From assembly GCA_017654855.1 (NCBI GenBank), contig CM030332.1, forward strand, positions 6,014,001-6,078,000: a stretch of DNA of 64,000 bases, in the 5' to 3' direction. The notes beneath the pieces were generated by a model. It did no database searches. It saw only the letters and a program-made list of their open reading frames with translations, and was not told the DNA's origin. Each line of letters starts with the position of its first letter. The stretch's first letter is position 1. The translations under genes and the position numbers were made by a program. The DNA is from Podospora anserina. Lineage: Eukaryota. Below, piece after piece: positions 6,880-45,422 of the stretch.

Positions 6880-7959
6880 CAAATATATAAAATGCAAGGG
6901 ACGGAAGTGGTCAAGACCGTGGTCCAAGGAACCAGGAGCGGCTAAGGCACACCCATGGGGACCCTAAGCCTGTGTTGAGGTTGACAATGAAGACGACGCT
7001 CTGAAGCAAGCTGCGCTATGTAGTTATCTACATACCGATGTCTTCTGGAGCAATCGTTGTCTACGGCGAGGGGATATTGAAGATAGAAGAGGGAAACTGA
7101 ACTTCCGGATGATTTGTTAGGTGTATAGGTTGGGATTAAGTACATAAATGAGAAATAGGAGAATAGCTTTGAAGGAAATATTGATACATTGTAGTCTTTA
7201 GAGACAATGGTAATACCACCATAACCGTCCGCAAAAATAGAAATGAGAGATGGACGACCCCTAAGTAATTCCGTAACCTGAGACCCCCTTTCAAGTGACA
7301 GCGCTAACATAACAATACGAAAGCACACCCCTATAGTAGGGCAGGGGGGGTGGGTTTCATGTTTCTTTTCACCGTTGTGCGAGGTTGGGCAGTGACAGTC
7401 GCATTGTATCCAATCCGTTGTATGGATAGTAAGTTGGAAAAGTCCTCGGTCGGGTGCTTGGTATTCACTGGAAGATTGAGCATTGATTGAGGAGCGAGAA
7501 CGACTCGGTCCGGCCGAATGTTCAAGTGTTATATGGTTGACGGACCCGTTGTGCCGGGATGTGGGCCCTGGGACTCTGAGACCGATTCGGCAGAGCTATA
7601 TCCGGCAGAGCCATCGAGGAAACGTCTAAGAAGCGGCACCGATAATGAATCCCCAGAAGTGGCCTCATGGCAGTGTTAGGTGGTGCACTCACTTTACTCC
7701 CGTCCCTTATCAGATTCTAGGTTGGAGGTTGCTTGTTTGCTAGGTGACCGCTCAAGCCAACCTCGCTATTAATTACTGCGACAGCAACAGGTTGGAAAGC
7801 CCCTCCCTAACCAACGGGCAACGGGGGTGAAGCACTTAATTCGTTTCGTCTTTAGAAAGGAGAGTCGCGGAGGGCCCAGGCATAAGCAATTTGCGAGCCT
7901 GGGACTGCAATGCGCTGAAGTTTTTGGGCTTGTCTTATTCGATTGAACAAATCGTGAAG

Positions 7960-11947: not shown

Positions 11948-12130
11948 TCCTTTTCTCATTCCCTGTATTATTAGTGATCTTTGTTGTGTACCTTTTGGTT
12001 ACACCGAACCGTTATTCAGAAGCAGCCTTCAACCCAGTATCCCCCTCAAAGGTTCTGATCAGGGGTTCGTCACACTCAACCCTGACCCTGCATCCTGTGT
12101 AATCCTGTCCTTCACCACCCAGCCGTGACA
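11948..12130. mobile_element. Nested LTR fragments: diverged 3' half (+, ends CGTCACA at 12074) and a reversed LTR 5' end (12075-12130)
   Basis: About 11970-12074 aligns by eye to the conserved 3' half of the LTR ending at 19852. 12130 leftwards reads TGTCACGG on the minus strand, like the other LTR starts. Confidence 0.7.
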
Positions 12131-16040: not shown

Positions 16041-16217
16041 CCCTTCGTTAAAGTCAGTATTATTTATTTTGTTGCGTAGCATTATCACTAACATCTTTTA
16101 TTGCTCCGAAGCATATCGAGTCGCTATGTTGGCACAATAGCCCAAAGCTCTGGCAAGCCTGTCTGGGGACTGCGACAAGTGACACAGCATACTTGACAGA
16201 CACACGTCAGGGAATTC

Positions 16218-18473
16218 TTGGGGTTTACAAACTTCTACCGGATGTTCATCCGTGGGTACGCAGGCATCGCGCGGCCACTCAACCACTTGACCAAGAAGGA
16301 CGTGAAGTTCCGGTGGGGGCAGGAAGAGGAGCAGGCCTTCCAGGAGCTAAAAGAGGCTATTTTGAAGGACCCAGTGCTCAAATTGCCAGACCCCAGTCGA
16401 CCATTTGAGGTCGAGGCGGATGCATCAGACTATGCGATCGGTGGACAGCTGGGACAGCGAGACGATGACGGTAAGCTACACCCGGTAGCCTTCTTCTCGA
16501 AGAAGCTTGAGGGAGCACGTCAGAACTACCCAACCCACGATAAGGAGCTACTCGCCATCATCGAAGCGTTCGAGGAGTGGAGGCCATATCTCAGTGGCAC
16601 CAACTACGAAGTACAGGTCTATACGGATCACAAGAACCTACGGTACTTCACCACTACGAAGGTCCTTAACGCGCGGCAGACACGATGGTCAGAGTTTCTC
16701 TCGGAATTTAATTTCCAGATCAACTACAAGAAGGGTTCGGAGAACGCCAGGGCAGACGCACTTAGCCGGCGAGCCGACCACCACAAGGATGCACCCAGGG
16801 AGTCACCACCACTACTTGAGGAGGCGCCAGATGGCACTCTCAAGCGTCCACTGCAGCCGTGGATGGAGTGTTGCGCAGTATATCGCGAGAGGGCCACTTC
16901 CAGCAAGTACCAAGGGAAGTTGGGCAGCGATATCACAGAGCAATACTGGCAGGAAGAGCTGGAGCCACAAGGCATCCAGAAAGACAGTCAGGGAAGACTG
17001 TGGTACAAGAATCGAGCGTACGTGATGCCAGGTGACAGGACGACACTGGTGATGGATATTCACGGGTCAAAGCTCGGAGGACACATGGGTATCGCTAAGA
17101 CCATGGAAAAGATCAAGCAGCACTTTGACTGGCCAAGGATCAAGGACGACGTCAAGGAAGCCATCCAGTCATGCCACACGTGCGAGAGAACAAGGGTTGC
17201 GAGGCACAAGCCTTACGGATTTCTGGAGCCACTACCAGTAGCGGAACGACCATGGAGCTCAGTCACGATGGACTTCATCACCAAGCTACCAGAGTCCAAG
17301 GACACGGCAACCGGCGTCAAGTACGACAGTATATTGACGGTTGTCGACAGGCTCACCAAGTGGGCATACTTCTTGCCATACAAGGAGACCTGGTCGGCAG
17401 AGCAACTGGCGGACGTGGTACTACGGCATGTCACAGCAACACACACATGGCCAAAGGAATTTATCACGGATCGCGATACTAAGTTCGTATCGAGGTTTTG
17501 GAGAGCGTTGATGACGAGGCTAGGGGTAGTGAGTAAGGCGTCATCGGCCTACCACCCTCAGACAGACGGCCAGACGGAACGGCTCAACCAGATCGTGGAA
17601 CAGTACCTACGGAATTACATCAATTTCGAGCAGGACGATTGGGTTGAACTGTTGCCCACGGCACAGTTGGCGTACAATACATCGCCAACGGAGACCACGA
17701 GAGTCACACCCTTCTTCGCGAATTTCGGCTACGAGGCAGACCTACGGCAGGGACCTACGGTTGAGGTGCCCAGGGCTGGGGTCAAGGCAGATAAGATGCA
17801 CATGCTCCACGGCAAGCTTAAGCAAGGACTGGAGTTTGTGAGGGAAAGGATGCGGAAATACTATAATACCAAAAGGCTCGAGGGACCTCGCCTTAAGGGG
17901 GAGGACATGGTATTCCTTTCCACACGCAATTTACGCACCAAAAGACCTAGTAAGAAGCTGGACCACAGGAGAGTGGGCCCGTTCAAGGTCAAAAGGAAGA
18001 TATCGGAGACGGCATTCGAACTGGAGCTACCTAGTACGATGCGTCTACGGTCACACACTTTTCACATCTCACTTCTGGAACCCGCACCACCAGCAAGTAA
18101 GGCCAATACACAGGCAGTGGCGGAGGACGAAGAAGAGGAGTACGATGTGGAAGAGATACTGGATTCACGGTTCAACAGAGGGCAATTGGAGTATTTGGTC
18201 AGTTGGTTAGGATATCCGGCTACAGATAACTCGTGGGAACCACAGGCACACCTCAACTGCCCAGACAAGCAAAAAGAGTTCCACCAGCAATACCCGGACC
18301 GGCCAAAACCCAAGCGAGTAAAAAGATCCGGCCCTGGCCCACAGCCAGATGGCTATGAGACAGAGCCAGGAGAACCTCAGCAGGAATCGAACCTACGCCT
18401 CCGACGTGGTAGTCGACGTGCTACACACTACACTACAAGGTTGGCAGGTACGAGGGAATCCAGGCCCAACTAG
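16218..18473 (+). CDS. Partial Pol: RT connection, RNase H, integrase, chromodomain
   Basis: FLGFTNFYR, EADASDYAIG, YTDHKNL, ADALSR, H-x6-H..CHTC, MDFIT, TDRDTKF, QTDGQTER, GPF and chromodomain YDVEEILDSR..YLVSWLGY..SWEP. 751 codons without a stop. Confidence 0.95.
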   Translation: MGFTNFYRMFIRGYAGIARPLNHLTKKDVKFRWGQEEEQAFQELKEAILKDPVLKLPDPSRPFEVEADASDYAIGGQLGQRDDDGKLHPVAFFSKKLEGARQNYPTHDKELLAIIEAFEEWRPYLSGTNYEVQVYTDHKNLRYFTTTKVLNARQTRWSEFLSEFNFQINYKKGSENARADALSRRADHHKDAPRESPPLLEEAPDGTLKRPLQPWMECCAVYRERATSSKYQGKLGSDITEQYWQEELEPQGIQKDSQGRLWYKNRAYVMPGDRTTLVMDIHGSKLGGHMGIAKTMEKIKQHFDWPRIKDDVKEAIQSCHTCERTRVARHKPYGFLEPLPVAERPWSSVTMDFITKLPESKDTATGVKYDSILTVVDRLTKWAYFLPYKETWSAEQLADVVLRHVTATHTWPKEFITDRDTKFVSRFWRALMTRLGVVSKASSAYHPQTDGQTERLNQIVEQYLRNYINFEQDDWVELLPTAQLAYNTSPTETTRVTPFFANFGYEADLRQGPTVEVPRAGVKADKMHMLHGKLKQGLEFVRERMRKYYNTKRLEGPRLKGEDMVFLSTRNLRTKRPSKKLDHRRVGPFKVKRKISETAFELELPSTMRLRSHTFHISLLEPAPPASKANTQAVAEDEEEEYDVEEILDSRFNRGQLEYLVSWLGYPATDNSWEPQAHLNCPDKQKEFHQQYPDRPKPKRVKRSGPGPQPDGYETEPGEPQQESNLRLRRGSRRATHYTTRLAGTRESRPN
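18320..18442 (-). ncRNA. tRNA-like + hairpin + T5 Pol III-type unit 1 (overlaps pol 3' tail, antisense)
   Basis: Cloverleaf 18442>18373: AACCTTG/TGAGGTT, GTGT/GCAC, TCGAC/GTCGG with 6-nt loop TACCAC, GTAGG-TTCGATT-CCTGC. Bulged hairpin CCTGG..CTCATAGCC/GGCTGTGGG-CCAGG. TTTTT at 18324-18320. Confidence 0.7.
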
Positions 18474-18525
18474 CACCACACGCTTCCACCGCCGCAAGAA
18501 AAGACATACCACCAACGGGGCAGCC

Positions 18526-18655
18526 AAAAAGGGAGATCTGTACTCAAATTCACGGAGGGGTATCCATGAATTTGAATACAGAAGAACCTCGACAGGAATC
18601 GAACCTGCGCCTTCGGCAGAAGAAGCCGACGTGCCACGCACTACACCACGAGGTT
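18526..18655 (-). ncRNA. tRNA-like + 19-bp hairpin + T5 Pol III-type unit 2
   Basis: Cloverleaf 18655>18585: AACCTCG/CGAGGTT, GTGT/GCAC, TCGGC-TTCTTCT-GCCGA, GCAGG-TTCGATT-CCTGT. A-box-like TGGTGTAGTG and B-box GGTTCGATTCC. Hairpin 18581-18538, TTTTT 18530-18526, upstream TTTATA about 25 nt before the start. Confidence 0.8.
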
Positions 18656-18697
18656 GGAAGGTGTGAGGGGACCCAGATATAAAGACTGCCACGCGTC

Positions 18698-19163
18698 TCA
18701 ACCACCTTGGGAAGTGGAAGGTGCGCCACTAGCAGTATCCTGCGCGGCCAGGAAGGAAGGACCGGCCGTGCCCGGATCCAGGGAAAGGTCAGGCGGCCAG
18801 TCGAAGCCTGAGGAAGGATCCAGGAAGGAGAAGTCGGAAGGACCCGGAGGAACAGAATCAGGAGGAGGAGCGTCGTTAGACGACGGGATAGCCTGCGCGG
18901 CCTGCGCAGCTCTCTCCTGTTCGCAAAGAAGAAGAAGAGGTGACGAGAGACTCACGCGAGGAGATGGGGACACCGGAGCCATCACACGAACGACCACGAC
19001 GTACGTAAGCCTCGCAACGCTTCACCTTATCCATCATACGGCAGGATAACCCCTGCGAGTCACACCACGAGCAAGGCATAACGAGGAAACCGTTCTCAGC
19101 AATATTCTGAGCTAGCTTAGCACGGTACTGTGCAGACGACGATGGGGGTTTTACTACAGACAT
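18698..19163 (-). pseudogene. Antisense retrotransposon ORF with Zn2Cys6-like Cys cluster and acidic/Pro tail, disrupted in this copy
   Basis: C31-x2-C34-x6-C41-x8-C50-x2-Y53-x6-C60, with Y from TAC at 19007-19005. GTGAGT donor at 18955. Tail EQERAAQ..DFSFLD..FDWPPDLSLD is in another frame, ending at 18698. Confidence 0.65.
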
Positions 19164-19286
19164 GGCGTTAGCCGGGCCATGGAAGAATGAGGGTGGAAGA
19201 CCTACGAAGGAGAAAAAGGGAGACGAGAGGAGCGTATGCAGTCGATAACCAAGCCAACGGGACGTTGGCCTGGAGGAGGGGCATCA

Positions 19287-19852
19287 TGTCACGGACCTGA
19301 CATGAGTGGGGAGCGCGGGGCGCGACCCGTCCAATCACTGAGGAACGGAAAAGTGGGGAAGTCAGATTATCACTGGCGCCAAGGGTGATAATCACGATTA
19401 TCACCAGCTGTCACAGTTAACCCAACGACAGGTCGCGCCACATGTGGGGCGCGGGACGCCCCTAGCCAATCATTAGAGAAGTCAGGAGACAGCCAATCAG
19501 GGCTGGACGAAAGTGCTATGGCGCCAAGACACACGAGCACTCTGCAGGATGCAAGATGCTACGAGTGATCAGAGGCATAGCACGACGAGCACTTCGCAGG
19601 ATGCAATGTGCTATGGGTGATCGGGGCCGTAGCAGGGCGAGCACCTCACGGTCCCGAGGTCTATATATACGGAGGAACTGGCTGGTGTAGATAGACAGTT
19701 CTGCAGTATGCAATTCAAGCTTGTATTCACGGGATCTAGTGTTTACATTGAGACATCTTGTTGTGCACTGTTTAGCTGCACCGAGCCACGATTATTCAGA
19801 AGTGCCTTCGACCAGTATCCCTTTCAGAGGTTCTGGATAGGGGTTCGTCACA
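19287..19852 (+). mobile_element. Chimeric 3' LTR: subfamily-A 5' part (19287-19408) + complete subfamily-B LTR (19409-19852)
   Basis: 19287-19408 matches the 5' end of solo LTR 20485>20113. A second TGTCAC start at 19409. Conserved TATA-to-CGTCACA tail. Confidence 0.9.
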
Positions 19853-20112: not shown

Positions 20113-20485
20113 TGTGACGAACCCCTATCCAGAACCTCTGAAAGGGATACTGGTCGAAGGCACTTCTGAATAATCGTGGCTCGGTGCAGCTAAACAGTGC
20201 ACAACAAGATGTCTCAATGTAAACACTAGATCCCGTGAATACAAGCTTGAATTGCATACTGCAGAACTGTCTATCTACACCAGCCAGTTCCTCCGTATAT
20301 ATAGACCTGTTTATCACCATTATCACCAGTGATAATATCGATTATCACTCGTCGTCACCGCGGGCTGGTGATAATCGTGATTATCACCCTTGGCGCCAGT
20401 GATAATCTGACTTCCCCACTTTTCCGTTCCTCAGTGATTGGACGGGTCGCGCCCCGCGCTCCCCACTCATGTCAGGTCCGTGACA
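20113..20485 (-). mobile_element. Solo LTR (373 bp), subfamily A
   Basis: TGTCAC...GTCACA termini. 5-bp TSD CGCTG at 20108-20112 and 20486-20490. Confidence 0.95.
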
Positions 20486-21245
20486 CGCTGCCTTAGGCTT
20501 AATGGTTTGCGTTGTAATTATGTGGAAGCTGTTTTTGGCTCTGCAGAGGGCAGAAGTTCCTTTTTATATTGTCAAGCCAACTGGCTATGCTCCAAAAATG
20601 GCTCTGCTCCAAAAATGGCTCTTGGAATTAAACAGACCCACTCAAAAGGTAGCATTCGATGGCTGGCGGCTCCGTGAGGTGAGTATGAACTAGCGTAAAA
20701 ATGCAATCTTACATGCCTGATCAAGTTAGAAACTATCCAAAGTTTCGGTGAGCCGGGATGAACAATGTTTGGAGGGAGATGATTTGCCTGATTTGGACAA
20801 ATTCAGAAACTGATTCTGGCTTGGACATACCACGCTGCTTCTGGCTCTGGCGAAGGCAGCGGTTGCCTGTCACAATTCCTACCTGCTTGACCAAACGTTC
20901 TACGCTCCAGAAACAGCTCTGGAATAACCTTGTGTCACGTAAATTTACTCATTGCTCACCCTGCTGGGCCTTTCTCGCCATGCTCAGGGCTTCTCCACTT
21001 CCGCTCAGGTTAAAGCGGCAAGTGCTCAGGTCCAAGAACGGAAATGGAAACTGTTGATGTCGGGATTCCGATATTGTTAGTAACTAGACTGATGCTGGTT
21101 TGAGGCGTGTACCACACTACTGCGTGGAAGGTGGAGCTAAGGTTTTGAGTTTTTCCGCGAGTAACCCTCATCCTAGCTTAGACGAATAAACGATTTCTGT
21201 TTATACCACCGAAGTCCACGTCACATATCTAACAAAACTCAAGGG

Positions 21246-21414
21246 TGTTATGGCGTGGCAGTTAACCAACACTGCAAGATACTCGAGGGTGCTTAGCAGC
21301 ATAGCAGGACGAGTACTCGGGAAGGATTCTAGTATATAGTCGTTCAGTTAGGATGGACTCGGAAGACTTCATCAGTATGCAATCACAACACTGACATATA
21401 ATTCCGTTTGAACA
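21246..21414 (+). mobile_element. Putative short solo LTR related to subfamily-B U3
   Basis: TGTTA...GAACA ends, TATATA and CAGTATGCAAT. 21273-21327 resembles 19550-19602. No TSD. Confidence 0.4.
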
Positions 21415-21420
21415 GGTGTC

Positions 21421-21581
21421 GAAGCGGCGAGTCTGAAAGCGGCGAGTCTGAAAGCGGTGAGTGTGAAGGCGGTGAGTCTGAAAGCGGTGAGTCTGAAAGC
21501 GGTGAGTCTGAAAGCGGTGAGTCTGAAAGCGGTGAGTCTGAAAGCGGTGAGTCTGAAAGCGGTGAGTCTGAAAGCGGCGAG
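21421..21581. repeat. 15-bp minisatellite (AAAGCGGTGAGTCTG) x ~10.7
   Basis: Directly visible tandem array. Reads ESGES in the frame of ORF 21408-21710. Confidence 0.95.
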
Positions 21582-22913
21582 CAAAAGTGGTTTGAGGTGG
21601 CAGAATCTTTATCTAATCTACCTAAACATTTTCTTACCTTTTACGAGTCACTTGTAACTAACTTCTTTATAAATAAACTATATACTAAAGGGTATCTTCC
21701 CCCGAAGTAAGGTACCAAGGCCTTCCATGTAGCTGCCTACTATCTCCCAATCGATTTTTTAGGTCCTTGAATCGTTTCTTTAGACCGCGCTAAAGACTTC
21801 GCTCGATGGATATATCGATGATCGTTTCATCGGATGTATATATATATCCACTCATCCTTATCTTTTAGGAGCTTCGAGTCGTGCCTGGAAGTCAACCTTC
21901 TAACAATCGCTCGGAGCAAGGACAGGATCTGTTCTGTACAAACATGCCTAACGTTAGCTCTAATATTACAACGTTAGGCGACCTTCCATCAAAATGTTAT
22001 TCTAAATACATTCGAGGTTATTCTTATAATATTTGTTACTTTCCTAACTACTCACTCGAAGAAGTGGTAATGCACGTTCATTTGCCTGATCGACCTGTTC
22101 GGCCACTTAGCTGGCTCGTTCGGCAGGGCTGAGTGGTTCGGCGGCTGGGCTACGTAGTTGGTTGTTGGTTAAAAAGAAAAAGTAAGAAAATCCAGCCCCA
22201 AGAGCAAAACCGGTGTGGGTCTGGGAAAACCCAGGCCCTTCAGTGTCCCGCATTGCCTCTTTAGAATTTCTAGACTTTGTTCGCGCCCAATACGCTGCAG
22301 TTCCGAGAGACCGCATGTTTACGGGAACACACGCCGGCAGGCCAGTTGATTAGGCCCTCTCGGGTAGGTGGAAGCAATTACCGTGAAGACTCTAGGGTCC
22401 CTAAACTGCGAGGTAGCTACGGTATGAGGTGACACCTAAGGAAGGCAAGTATAGGGAACTATGCCCTGTCAATAAAATCATAGACACTGAACTACAGGGA
22501 TCTACGCCCAGGAAGAGAGTGTGGTGAACCAGTATATTGAACTCTAACTGTTTGGCTTGAACTTGAACTTAAGGAAGGAATGAAAAGTCAATTCCAAACA
22601 CACCGCGAGGGAAGCCCTTTATAGGCATTGAAGACCTCCTTATCGCTCCCCACAACTTCCATCGGTTCAGTGGCCCACAGTGGCTTGTATCGCTGATAAG
22701 CCCTGTTGAGTCCCTTGTATTCGATTGATTCCAGTTGGTGAGAACGCTGTGGTGAGAGCTGCGGTTTCCAACCGCAAGTGCTGCTGGTGGTGCAAGTGCT
22801 GGAAACCACACAGAAGAATACTGTAAAATCCACAAATACGTGCTGTATTTTATTGATTCCGGATCTTGGGATCTATACAGTATATAAGCAGAGCGCCTGA
22901 GGTTTCAAAGCTT

Positions 22914-26990: not shown

Positions 26991-28616
26991 ATGGCTTCCA
27001 CTCGCTCATCTTCTGGCCTGCGGGCTGTGTCTCTCTTTTGCCTTATTGCCGCTTCTCAGGCCGTCCCTCACGGCAATGTCTTCAAACGCCAGGGCACTTC
27101 GTCAACCCGCAATGGATGCTTCGTCAGCAACGTCAATGGCCAACGTCTTCTGTCCGCCTCTACCTACGCCAGTGATGCCATGACCGTCGAGAGCTGTGCG
27201 TCCTTCTGCTTTAGGCACAAGTACTTTGCCCTCGAATTTGGCCGTGAGTGCTACTGCGGAAACTCCTACACTGCCCAGCCCGTCAGTGATACCCAGTGCT
27301 CTATGCAGTGCGCTGGCAACCCAGCACAGAATTGTGGCGCCGGTAACCGTGTCGACCTCTACACCAACGGACTCTACGTTCCCCGAGCCCCCGCCACCCT
27401 GAGCACACCTTACCTCGGTTGCTTTGTTGACGAGGGACCCCGTGTGCTCCCTAACAACCTCCTGGGCGCGAGTGATATGACAGCTGAGAGGTGTGCTGCC
27501 CACTGTTCCAACTATTCTTACTTTGGTCTCGAGTATGGCAGAGAGGTAAGTCTTGTCGTTGCCCTGCATAAATATTAGAGTTAAACACTGACTTCGTCGC
27601 TGTAGTGCTGGTGTGGAAACTCCAAGCCAAAGAACCCTGCCCCTGAAACAGATTGCTCATTCCCTTGCTCCGGAGACGACTCTCAGCTCTGCGGTGCCGG
27701 CGGCCGGATCAATGTCTGGGGATCCCCTCTTCCTTCCCCTGAAAATGTTGGCGACTTCGAATACACTGGCTGCTTCACCGATGCCGTTGGTCAGCGTTCG
27801 CTCAGAGGCAAGACCACCTACGACTCACAGATGACCTTGGAGAAGTGCGCGGCCTCCTGCTCCGGATACGATTACTTTGGCGTCTCATTTGCGGAAGAAT
27901 GCTACTGCGGTGACACACTGGAGCCAACAGCCGAGGAGGTTCCCCAGGCCGAGTGCGCGATGCGTTGCGCCGGCAACTACAACCAGGTCTGCGGCGACGC
28001 CAACAGGTTGAACGTCTACTCTAACGCCCAGTGTCTCCCGGATCCGGAAAGCCCGCTCAGCGTCACCGGCTTCAACTACCAGGCCTGCTGGACCGATCAG
28101 GTTGGCGACCGCTCCCTTCGCGATGTCGTGGAGCGTAGCGACAACATGACAGTCGAGACATGCGCCGCCATTTGCAAGGACTTCAACTTCTTTGGTGTCG
28201 AGTTCGGCAGGGAATGCTTCTGTGGCAACACCCTCTACGGAGAGGTGGCACCTGCTAGCGATTGCACTTTCCGGTGCGCCGGTGACTCGACACAGCTCTG
28301 CGGTGCTGTTGACCGGTTGAACCTGTACTATGCCACTGTTCCCCCAACCACGACATCGGCTGTTGCCACACCTACTCCTACACCTACCCTCCCTGCTGAG
28401 GAAGAGGACGATGGGGAGCCCACTGCTACCACTGAGACCCCAACTCCCACTTCCACTCTCCCCGGCGGTGACGAGGAGGATGAGGAGCCCACACCTGTGT
28501 CCACTGCCGTGGATGCTGAGCCCACTGACACCGACGTGGAGGATGAGCCTCCCGTTGAGACTGACGTGGAAGACGAAGAGGACGATGAGGCTCTTCCCAC
28601 TCCTACTCCCAACTAA
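26991..28616 (+). CDS. Secreted multi-WSC-domain protein with acidic Thr/Pro tail, 1 intron (27546-27605)
   Basis: Signal peptide, KR site and four repeats of GCF..MT.E.C...C..Y.YFG.EFGRECYCGN..C...CAG...Q.CG...R...Y. Confidence 0.92.
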
Positions 28617-41674: not shown

Positions 41675-42078
41675 TGTCACAACCTTAACATCGGGAACGG
41701 TGGAGCAGTGCAAGGTCACCAGCCAATCAGAACAAGGTCGCGGCGGTCTGGGCGATCATGGGCAATAAGACTGGGAAGTGCAGTGATCACGGAAGTACAA
41801 CCAATAAGGAACCAGAGAAGGATCATAGCGATCATTATGATCATTGGGGAAGAGCGGAATGATCACCATGATCGGGGAGAATCAAGGTCTATATATACGG
41901 AGGAACTGGCTGGTGTGGCTAGACAGTTCCGCAGTATGCAATTCACAATTGTATTCACGGTATCTTGTGTTTACATTGAGACATCTTGTTGTGCACTATT
42001 TAGCTGCACCGAACCAATTGTCAGAAGTTACCTTCAACCAGTATCCCTTTCAGAGGTTCTGTACAGGGGTTCGTCACA
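41675..42078 (+). mobile_element. Solo LTR, subfamily C (different 5' half)
   Basis: TGTCAC...GTCACA with the conserved 3' half. Flanks AGTCA/AGCAG do not match, so the site is probably rearranged. Confidence 0.9.
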
Positions 42079-44977: not shown

Positions 44978-45377
44978 TGTCACGGTTTTGGCATAAGGTG
45001 GGGGAATAGGCGAACCAATAAGTATTGGACCAGGGACTGGGGCAGGGCTCACGGGCCATAGTCCAGAAGGAACCAATGGGAGCTGGACCGGGGACCGCGG
45101 CAGGGCTCACGGTCCACGGTCCAGGAAGAGCCAATCAGGTGAGGACCGAGGACCGTCTGGAAGTCAACAGTCCACGGTCCCGAGGTCTATATATACGGAG
45201 GAACTAGATGGCTAGCAGATAGTTCCGCAGTATGCAATACAAGTCACATTCGTTGGTATCAAGACTATTGTGATTGATACAAGCCATTGTGCACTATTTA
45301 GCTGCACCGAACCAGGTTATCTAGAAGCGCCTTCGACTAGTATCCCTTTCAGAGGTTCTGGATAGGGGTTCGTCACA
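44978..45377 (+). mobile_element. Solo LTR (400 bp), subfamily D
   Basis: TGTCAC...GTCACA termini. TSD TACCT on both sides. Confidence 0.95.
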
Positions 45378-45422
45378 TACCTGGATGCACTATATGTAGT
45401 GTTTGACGGGCACACATAGAGC

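Follow-up and report, generated by a model that had tools for sequence, protein, structure and literature searches.

A stretch of 64,000 nucleotides (nt) of Podospora anserina (assembly GCA_017654855.1, contig CM030332.1, positions 6,014,001-6,078,000, forward strand), hereafter the window, harbours a 5'-truncated Ty3/Gypsy retrotransposon of the chromovirus group, which carries two tandem units on the minus strand between the end of its chromodomain and its 3' long terminal repeat (LTR, 19287-19852). Each unit consists of a tRNA-like cloverleaf, an adjoining hairpin and a run of T residues. This cassette is present across copies of the element and across species labels, and the same anatomy and position are retained in a second, distant lineage, represented by the metagenomic locus L001. 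Judging from its sequence, each unit may be a self-contained type-2 RNA polymerase III (Pol III) gene, set in an antisense accessory module of a fungal chromovirus clade, a reading to which we give about an even chance. Pol III transcription, the processing steps that would follow it and a benefit to the element are what this anatomy leads us to propose. The parts of the two units, in their order of reading, are given below.

18584-18655, minus strand: tRNA-like unit 2, complete cloverleaf containing A and B boxes (ARAGORN; Rfam, 52.8 bits; pair count)
within 18584-18655, minus strand: anticodon loop of unit 2, 7 nt, CTT, with C at position 37
18537-18582, minus strand: hairpin 2, 20 bp with a 6-nt loop, beginning 1 nt past the discriminator base
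18526-18530, minus strand: T5 run after hairpin 2, putative Pol III terminator, with a further T4 about 25 nt downstream
18372-18442, minus strand: tRNA-like unit 1, a cloverleaf containing A and B boxes, its anticodon loop shortened (ARAGORN; Rfam, 42.7 bits; pair count)
18328-18369, minus strand: hairpin 1, 18 pairs around one mismatch with a 4-nt loop, beginning 2 nt past the discriminator base
18320-18324, minus strand: T5 run after hairpin 1, putative Pol III terminator, read from sequence

ARAGORN called 2 tRNA-type genes in the whole window, both in the cassette and both on the minus strand: unit 2, as Lys with a CTT anticodon, and unit 1, with an irregular anticodon loop. The same two units were the sole matches in the window at the gathering level of Rfam (n=2), and the scores of both, like that of the L001 unit, exceeded the gathering score of the tRNA family (RF00005), which is 29. 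The original prediction of two tandem minus-strand units, each reading cloverleaf, then hairpin, then T5, was indeed confirmed by ARAGORN, Rfam, folding and the sequence itself, as were its details, namely the 7-bp acceptor stem, the B box (GGTTCGATTCC), the C at position 37 of unit 2 and the shortened anticodon loop of unit 1.

The hairpins were markedly more stable than shuffled sequences. Hairpin 2, also detected by a terminator-like scan, folded at -28.6 kcal/mol (z -10.3; 0/200 shuffles as stable; -21.6 on the plus strand), hairpin 1 at -31.8 kcal/mol (z -6.5; 0/200 shuffles as stable; -18.8 on the plus strand) and the 16-bp hairpin of L001, which starts 2-3 nt after its unit, at -23.1 kcal/mol (z -5.3; -13.7 on the plus strand). 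The minus strand was favoured by 7 to 13 kcal/mol in all three and, read on that strand, the three units contain 17 G-U pairs and 1 A-C mismatch by our own count from the folds and the pair table; the structural strand is the minus strand. The two hairpins of the window share their position and differ in sequence, and GATCT stands between hairpin and T5 run in both window units. Across the three units the gap between tRNA-like part and hairpin is 1-3 nt, and the hairpins are followed by T5, T5 and, in L001, three T4 runs. A leader with A and B boxes, an adjoining hairpin and oligo-T, which make up the anatomy of a TMER- or milR-4-like gene (see below), were thus found in 3/3 units.

A decoding tRNA was taken to have a 7-nt anticodon loop with U33, a purine at position 37 and G18 G19 in the D loop. 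Unit 2 has a pyrimidine (C) at position 37, the loop of unit 1 is one base short, and the D loops of both window units lack GG at the usual place; the unit of L001 has an irregular anticodon loop and a mismatch in the anticodon stem. It is therefore barely credible that the element spreads functional tRNA genes with a part in decoding, even if the Rfam scores above gathering and the ARAGORN calls of Lys (CTT) and, in L001, Val (GAC) speak for it; the original prediction had likewise judged decoding unlikely, from the non-canonical anticodon loops and the absence of GG from the D loop.

Units 1 and 2 lie 212-213 nt apart and are 79.6% identical over 98 nt, the alignable part comprising a leader of about 25 nt, the cloverleaf and the first bases of the trailer; the two arose by tandem duplication. 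The claim that stem changes between the two preserve pairing held as well, since 7 stem positions differ and 7/7 still pair (alignment read by eye).

The host chromovirus and its family

The element around the cassette comprises the following parts, besides an antisense reading frame that is described further below.

16197-18473, plus strand: pol open frame of a 5'-truncated Ty3/Gypsy chromovirus, with the end of the reverse transcriptase (RT), RNase H, integrase, an SH3-like domain and a chromodomain
19272-19286, plus strand: polypurine tract (PPT) plus 5 nt, GGAGGAGGGG, just before the LTR
19287-19852, plus strand: 3' LTR, TGTCAC ... GTCACA, bounds set by other LTR copies

The pol frame contains the Pfam domains RT_RNaseH, Integrase_H2C2, rve, SH3_Tf2-1 and Chromo. 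RNase H, integrase and a C-terminal chromodomain thus occur in one frame, with PPT and LTR downstream, and the earlier assignment of the host element to the chromoviruses stands. Nothing resembling gag, protease or RT was found in the window upstream of about 16150, which makes the window copy 5'-truncated. The homology of pol to L001 runs from window positions 16148-16206 to 18305-18325. None of the 80 related loci described below has an equivalent of the last 50 codons of the frame, which lie over hairpin 1 and unit 1, and the frame beyond 18305-18325 is read as a probably fortuitous read-through over unit 1. The cassette had been described as antisense to pol. Its minus-strand orientation is borne out; its overlap with pol is confined to unit 1, which lies under a frame continuing from pol, beyond the conserved end of pol. 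Since this tail is not conserved, the cassette is better placed in the 3' untranslated interval, antisense to the element.

Further matches to the LTR occur within the window at 20113-20492 (inverted), 41885-42078, 45173-45378 and 11981-12074, and in four sequencing runs (see below) the LTR showed a very high summed contig depth and many differing flanks after 19852. Neither the LTR at 19287-19852 nor the other LTR copies of the window contain a tRNA according to ARAGORN and Rfam. It should also be noted that the LTR copies at 19287-19852 (plus strand) and 20113-20492 (minus strand) point towards one another with 260 bp between them; their identity is 100% over 196 bp and 98% over 129 bp, the inverted copy having about 55 bp in place of the 248-bp middle segment 19409-19656. 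The pair may reflect a genuine inverted insertion, or else an error of assembly. Solo LTR-like copies at 41676-42078, 44979-45378 and 11981-12075 belong to related families, with TGTCAC...GTCACA ends and 78-90% identity to the end of the 3' LTR; a recognisable primer-binding site follows none of them.

At least part of the region 18200-19290 was contained in 15 listed public run rows from 6 studies; 10 of these 15 rows, all under one species label, matched at least half of the sampled words. Copies were compared on Logan contigs at 80% likeness in 4 of the 24 listed runs (X1, X12, X14 and X15, one per species label), and family copies were judged from the differences and joints of the contigs rather than from the contig sequences themselves. 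X12, X14 and X15 are those compared rows with small shares, and contig depth is not a copy number. The family was multi-copy in all four runs (869, 612, 77 and 1686 contig pieces). In X12 (organism B), window positions 16197-18842 are spanned by a contig of 4495 nt, which takes in pol and both units and shows 139 differences and 8 gaps. Single-unit copies were recognised in X12 and X15 by the joints 18351>18583, 18450>18666, 18400>18620 and 18442>18673, while in X14 a loose end at 18615 runs into a D arm and an anticodon arm like those of unit 1, with the D-stem pair 12:23 as A-U in this continuation versus G-C in the window.

On the evidence of these contigs, the cassette is part of the element family and no one-off capture. 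The suggestion that the cassette is the element's own is supported by the four species labels that carry the family, by the X12 contig running from pol to the units and by the same layout in L001. The tandem pair is the derived state, a single unit being found in several copies of other species labels and in L001.

Differences between copies were mostly C>T and G>A (in X1, 441 of the 585 listed change places), a bias that bears the signature of repeat-induced point mutation (RIP). RIP-type dinucleotide indices and many in-frame TAG stops were also seen in L001; the truncated copy of the window lacks such indices. Because RIP-type mutation is at work in the hosts, these are presumably Pezizomycotina.

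Conservation of the unit in a distant lineage

Related elements were sought with an alignment of P0001 and 14 of 150 representative hits of an HMMER search (short proteins covering most of the query). This gave 80 chromovirus loci from metagenome contigs, with pol 35-52% identical, of which 65 had at least 300 nt beyond the pol match; scans of the viral and genome contig collections with P0001 gave no relative. L001 is the closest of the 80 (pol 52% identical) and the sole one in which ARAGORN called a tRNA. Its unit lies at 6911-6983 on the minus strand, 137 nt past the pol match, scores 45.2 bits in Rfam and is followed by the hairpin and T4 runs given above, so that the cassette anatomy of cloverleaf, adjoining hairpin and oligo-T recurs in another lineage. 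The 3' regions of L001 and of the window can be aligned only at the junction of PPT and LTR: the PPT region is the sole non-coding stretch alignable between the two (L001 7582-7618 vs window 19258-19293, 86% identity by blastn). As the 3' non-coding DNA is otherwise unalignable, the shared layout is not residual sequence similarity.

Over the three units, pairing is intact in 62 of 63 cloverleaf cells, and both partners differ in 7 of 21 pairs; none of 500 shuffles reached these pairing values, and slid controls paired in 32-48% of cells. Variation is almost absent from the B box and T loop; it is greatest in the anticodon loop, which is non-canonical in all three units. A scaffold for promotion and processing would be expected to vary in this way, a decoder would not. 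The strongest argument is that boxes, stems, hairpin position and T-run have been retained together, at a single syntenic site, by two lineages in which the rest of the non-coding DNA is saturated.

This retention bears on the possibility that the unit is a neutral passenger, a functionless tRNA gene or retroposon of tRNA origin which the element picked up a single time in its 3' untranslated region and has since copied with itself. The decayed anticodon loops and the dead, truncated state of the window copy are in line with such a history, as is a flanking repeat: a perfect 9-bp direct repeat, GGACCGGCC, brackets the two-unit cassette (18296-18304 and 18759-18767). By our own estimate, about 0.5 such 9-mer pairs are expected by chance in the 531-nt region, and the right-hand copy lies 103 nt upstream of the tRNA start, a placement unfit for the target-site duplication of a Pol III retroposon. 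A poly(A) or LINE-like tail is absent, and stems, boxes, hairpin position and T-run survive between lineages with saturated non-coding DNA. We therefore regard a neutral passenger as quite unlikely. The more specific idea of an inserted tRNA-derived short interspersed nuclear element was rejected, there being no A-rich tail and the sole flanking repeat being at chance level and misplaced.

Other searches returned no further unit. A covariance model built from the three units matched nothing beyond those three in 665,687 nt (window plus 80 loci). Loose minus-strand B-box matches downstream of pol were found in 6 of the 80 loci, with L036 as the sole strict match; Rfam, run on 5 of those 6 (not L048) and on L001, found a tRNA in L001 only. 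A protein search with the pol tail (residues 640-758) gave no match at near lengths and 2 proteins at shorter lengths, in whose tails no antisense-tRNA peptide was found. Antisense B-box peptide motifs occur in the last 150 residues of P0053, P0056, P0060 and P0066, among the 150 best HMMER representatives; inspection by eye recognised none of the four as the translation of an antisense tRNA, a result of little weight since gene models normally end before the cassette.

The antisense reading frame and a possible Pol III gene

Between the cassette and the PPT, the minus strand carries the remnant of a cysteine-rich open reading frame (ORF).

18879-19163, minus strand: antisense ORF remnant, cysteine-rich with Zn2Cys6-like spacing (translations; homologues P0155 and P0156)

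In the window remnant the fifth cysteine is replaced by tyrosine and the coiled-coil part is missing or frame-shifted; by eye only, a frame-shifted continuation would stop at 18698-18700, about 42 nt before unit 2. In L001 the ORF lies at 7017-7481 (minus strand) with three in-frame TAG stops, and the unit starts 30 nt after its stop. Database homologues are P0155 (87% identical) and P0156 (57%), and intact versions were found in the loci L002 (2851-3336, minus strand) and L016 (5377-5952, minus strand). A Zn2Cys6 protein was defined by the spacing C-x2-C-x6-C-x5-12-C-x2-C-x6-8-C, then a coiled coil, plus a match to Pfam Zn_clus. L002 and L016 show C-x2-C-x6-C-x8-C-x2-C-x6-C followed by a long helix or coiled coil, and P0155 also has spacing of the defined kind; the Zn_clus match of the ORF, at 13.6 bits, is below threshold (cutoff 21). 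An AlphaFold model of the ORF (mean pLDDT 74.6) gave weak PDB matches (E 0.45-1), and the top 10 of these weak matches were all Zn2Cys6 DNA-binding domains, such as those of Hap1, Leu3, Ppr1 and Pho7. Taken together, spacing and model are suggestive of a Gal4-like (Zn2Cys6) protein. No description of an antisense cysteine-rich ORF in fungal chromoviruses was found in the published literature.

L002 and L016 have the ORF without a tRNA-like unit, and in both it borders on the end of pol or overlaps it. Its distribution is accordingly wider than the unit-carrying clade, and in one sub-clade the unit seems to have entered the space that separates ORF and pol.

This arrangement could also be accounted for by a unit that serves as a 3'-end processing module for the Pol II mRNA of the antisense ORF, where RNase P would cut at the 5' end of the tRNA-like fold and thereby form the 3' end of the mRNA, in the manner of MALAT1/mascRNA; the same module would also stop antisense transcripts from reaching pol and forming double-stranded RNA. 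The short distance from ORF stop to unit (30 nt in L001, about 42 nt from the stop of the frame-shifted remnant in the window) is in line with it, as are the ORFs of L002 and L016 that run up to or into the end of pol where the unit is lacking, and unit 2 has a weak Rfam match to mascRNA-menRNA (19.4 bits, E 0.48). That match is far below the gathering score of 42.5, though, and such a module explains neither the intact A and B boxes nor the hairpin and T-run downstream, which would be discarded after the RNase P cut and yet are kept in 3/3 units; an AATAAA just before the L001 unit moreover puts ordinary polyadenylation at hand. We consider this alternative unlikely.

To the same degree we think it unlikely that the unit acts as DNA, recruiting TFIIIC and TFIIIB so as to form a boundary in chromatin, to block the way of Pol II or to serve as a landing pad, its transcript being incidental. 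The unit would then work inside an element that targets heterochromatin through its chromodomain. tRNA genes are heterochromatin barriers in yeasts, and the B box and T loop are indeed the best-conserved part of the three units; a DNA site nevertheless needs neither the cloverleaf pairing (62/63), nor a strand-specific hairpin stability, nor a T-run.

A Pol III gene, by contrast with a module cut from an mRNA or a DNA site, would cover all three parts, internal promoter, hairpin and T-run, in one model. According to this model, an accessory module would lie opposite gag-pol, between the end of pol and the PPT, and would combine the Gal4-like ORF with a tRNA-derived unit some 30-40 nt after the ORF stop, present once ancestrally and duplicated in the lineage of the window. 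The cloverleaf would supply the internal A and B boxes, transcription would proceed through the adjoining hairpin of 16-20 bp and terminate at the oligo-T run, and RNase P and RNase Z would then free a non-decoding tRNA-like RNA and the hairpin, the 5' end of which would be set by RNase Z. The hairpin may be diced to small RNAs, as for Neurospora milR-4 and the herpesvirus TMERs, or may instead aid termination or 3'-end stability. The Neurospora precedent invoked in the original prediction is borne out by the part of the literature concerned: milR-4 exemplifies, in a filamentous ascomycete, a route through tRNA, RNase Z and Pol III to hairpin-derived small RNAs, here microRNA-like RNAs (milRNAs) (PMC3547838).

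Several points weigh against a Pol III gene. A head-on Pol III gene in the Pol II unit of the element should hinder the synthesis of genomic RNA. By the standard of Pol III terminators in yeast, runs of T5 and T4 are short. No RNA run was found among the listed runs containing the stretch. The lack of sequence conservation among the hairpins speaks against a fixed target in trans, and a target search of the window found no further complement of the hairpin arms or of the tRNA-like parts. The unit was absent, according to ARAGORN, from 79 of the 80 loci, leaving two independent lineages only, and P0157, a closer relative represented by a protein record alone and 73% identical over the chromodomain, has no antisense-tRNA peptide in its tail, where a frame change would hide one. 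As for the pairing evidence, any pair of tRNAs will fit a cloverleaf, and covariation between L001 and the window, which would also follow from the independent capture of different tRNAs, carries less weight in that case; RIP hits CpA/TpG symmetrically and can thus turn G-C into A-U pairs without selection; and the plus strand is A-rich (AT skew 0.20-0.24), which alone could bias mismatches toward G-U on the minus strand.

Beside putative roles as decoy, trans-acting milRNA or insulator, the original prediction had also mentioned a role as primer, and many LTR elements do prime reverse transcription with the 3' end of a tRNA, as stated in the relevant part of PMC10886601. In L001, the one copy in which this was tested, the suggestion found no support: the stretch at 305-315, directly behind the 5' LTR, shows no complementarity to the unit's 3' end, and contains 9 nt complementary to LTR positions 144-152, about 35 nt after the TATA box, so that it pairs with the start of the element's own transcript. 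This fits Tf1-type self-priming better than a tRNA primer. In self-priming of that type, the primer region matches the start of the element's own transcript. That the unit is the element's own primer for reverse transcription is thus very improbable.

A broader proposal is that of a "complex" retrotransposon which would encode a Gal4-type protein together with a Pol III tRNA-like/pre-milRNA gene, its hairpin RNAs entering the RNA interference (RNAi) pathway of the fungus; we advance it tentatively, as unlikely. If true, the hairpin RNAs could blunt silencing, tune copy number or act on host genes, and the element would offer, among fungal retrotransposons, a parallel to the Pol III miRNA cassettes of bovine leukemia virus (BLV) and to the herpesvirus TMERs.

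Relation to known systems

In the published literature, searched apart from the supplementary family lists of PMC10886601, no account of a fungal Gypsy element with a tRNA-hairpin unit placed internally and in antisense was found, in agreement with the earlier impression that none had been reported. As far as the relevant part of that source goes, the closest published elements are Helenus, Cassandra and Ajax (together TRIMp3), which share a tRNA-like part mostly judged non-decoding and of which fungal examples exist, in rusts and some Agaricomycetes, seemingly dependent on Copia elements (PMC10886601). TRIMp3 are short, non-autonomous miniature retrotransposons with terminal repeats (TRIMs) of about 0.3-1.3 kb without coding capacity, and their tRNA- or 5S-like sequence lies in the LTRs, in sense orientation, where it is thought to drive their own transcript (PMC10886601). 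Here, by contrast, the unit stands beside pol domains in an autonomous-type chromovirus; it is internal, runs antisense, brings a hairpin and T-run of its own and is unable to drive transcription of the element. L001 indeed has content of gag-pol length between its LTRs, unlike TRIMp3, and none of the three traits that define TRIMp3 (non-autonomy, location in the LTR, sense orientation) was found here.

The TMERs of murine gammaherpesvirus 68 (MHV-68) consist of a tRNA-like leader with an internal promoter, then one or more hairpins, then oligo-T; RNase Z sets the 5' end of the hairpin, and the tRNA-like part is non-decoding. The likeness to the present units thus extends to the non-decoding tRNA-like leader, the adjoining hairpin, the oligo-T and the parasitic or mobile nature of the carrier genome. 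The carrier of the TMERs is a mammalian DNA virus, however, so that the likeness is one of analogy without homology, and TMER processing is experimental, whereas the anatomy described here comes from sequence alone. TMERs are also mentioned in the Discussion of PMC3547838, the part of the literature that concerns milR-4. milR-4 likewise comes from a filamentous ascomycete and from a Pol III transcript with a tRNA, in which an RNase Z cut makes the 5' end of the hairpin precursor (PMC3547838). It differs in being a host locus with genuine tRNA-Ala genes, not borne by a transposon, and in having its milRNA between two tRNAs (PMC3547838). The BLV miRNA cluster, from the parts of the reports that describe it, offers the likeness of a retroelement with compact type-2 Pol III hairpin units, independent of the genomic Pol II transcript; it differs in belonging to an animal retrovirus, with hairpins transcribed directly and without a tRNA-like leader (PMC12498455, PMC4992882, PMC3911700). 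All three, TMERs, milR-4 and the BLV cluster, are analogues in function and no relatives. It may be added that the BLV hairpins are in sense orientation.

Pol III small-RNA cassettes were known before in a few animal viruses and retroviruses, and Pol III promoters in the LTRs of tiny non-autonomous elements. If the Pol III reading is true, an internal, antisense and self-terminating tRNA-hairpin gene beside an antisense DNA-binding protein would be a new accessory cargo of retrotransposons, and would offer a natural system in which a mobile element meets fungal RNAi, RIP and heterochromatin. In practical terms, such tRNA-like units inflate predictions of fungal tRNA genes, and they also mark a recognisable chromovirus clade.

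Two repeats were seen elsewhere in the window. At 21392-21616 lies a tandem array with a 15-bp unit, AAGCGGTGAGTCTGA, which the repeat finder gave as 11 overlapping 75-nt copies in 15-nt register. At 27639-28321 a 74-nt motif occurs three times, 300-309 nt apart and 61-70% identical, and resembles a repeated domain of a coding region.

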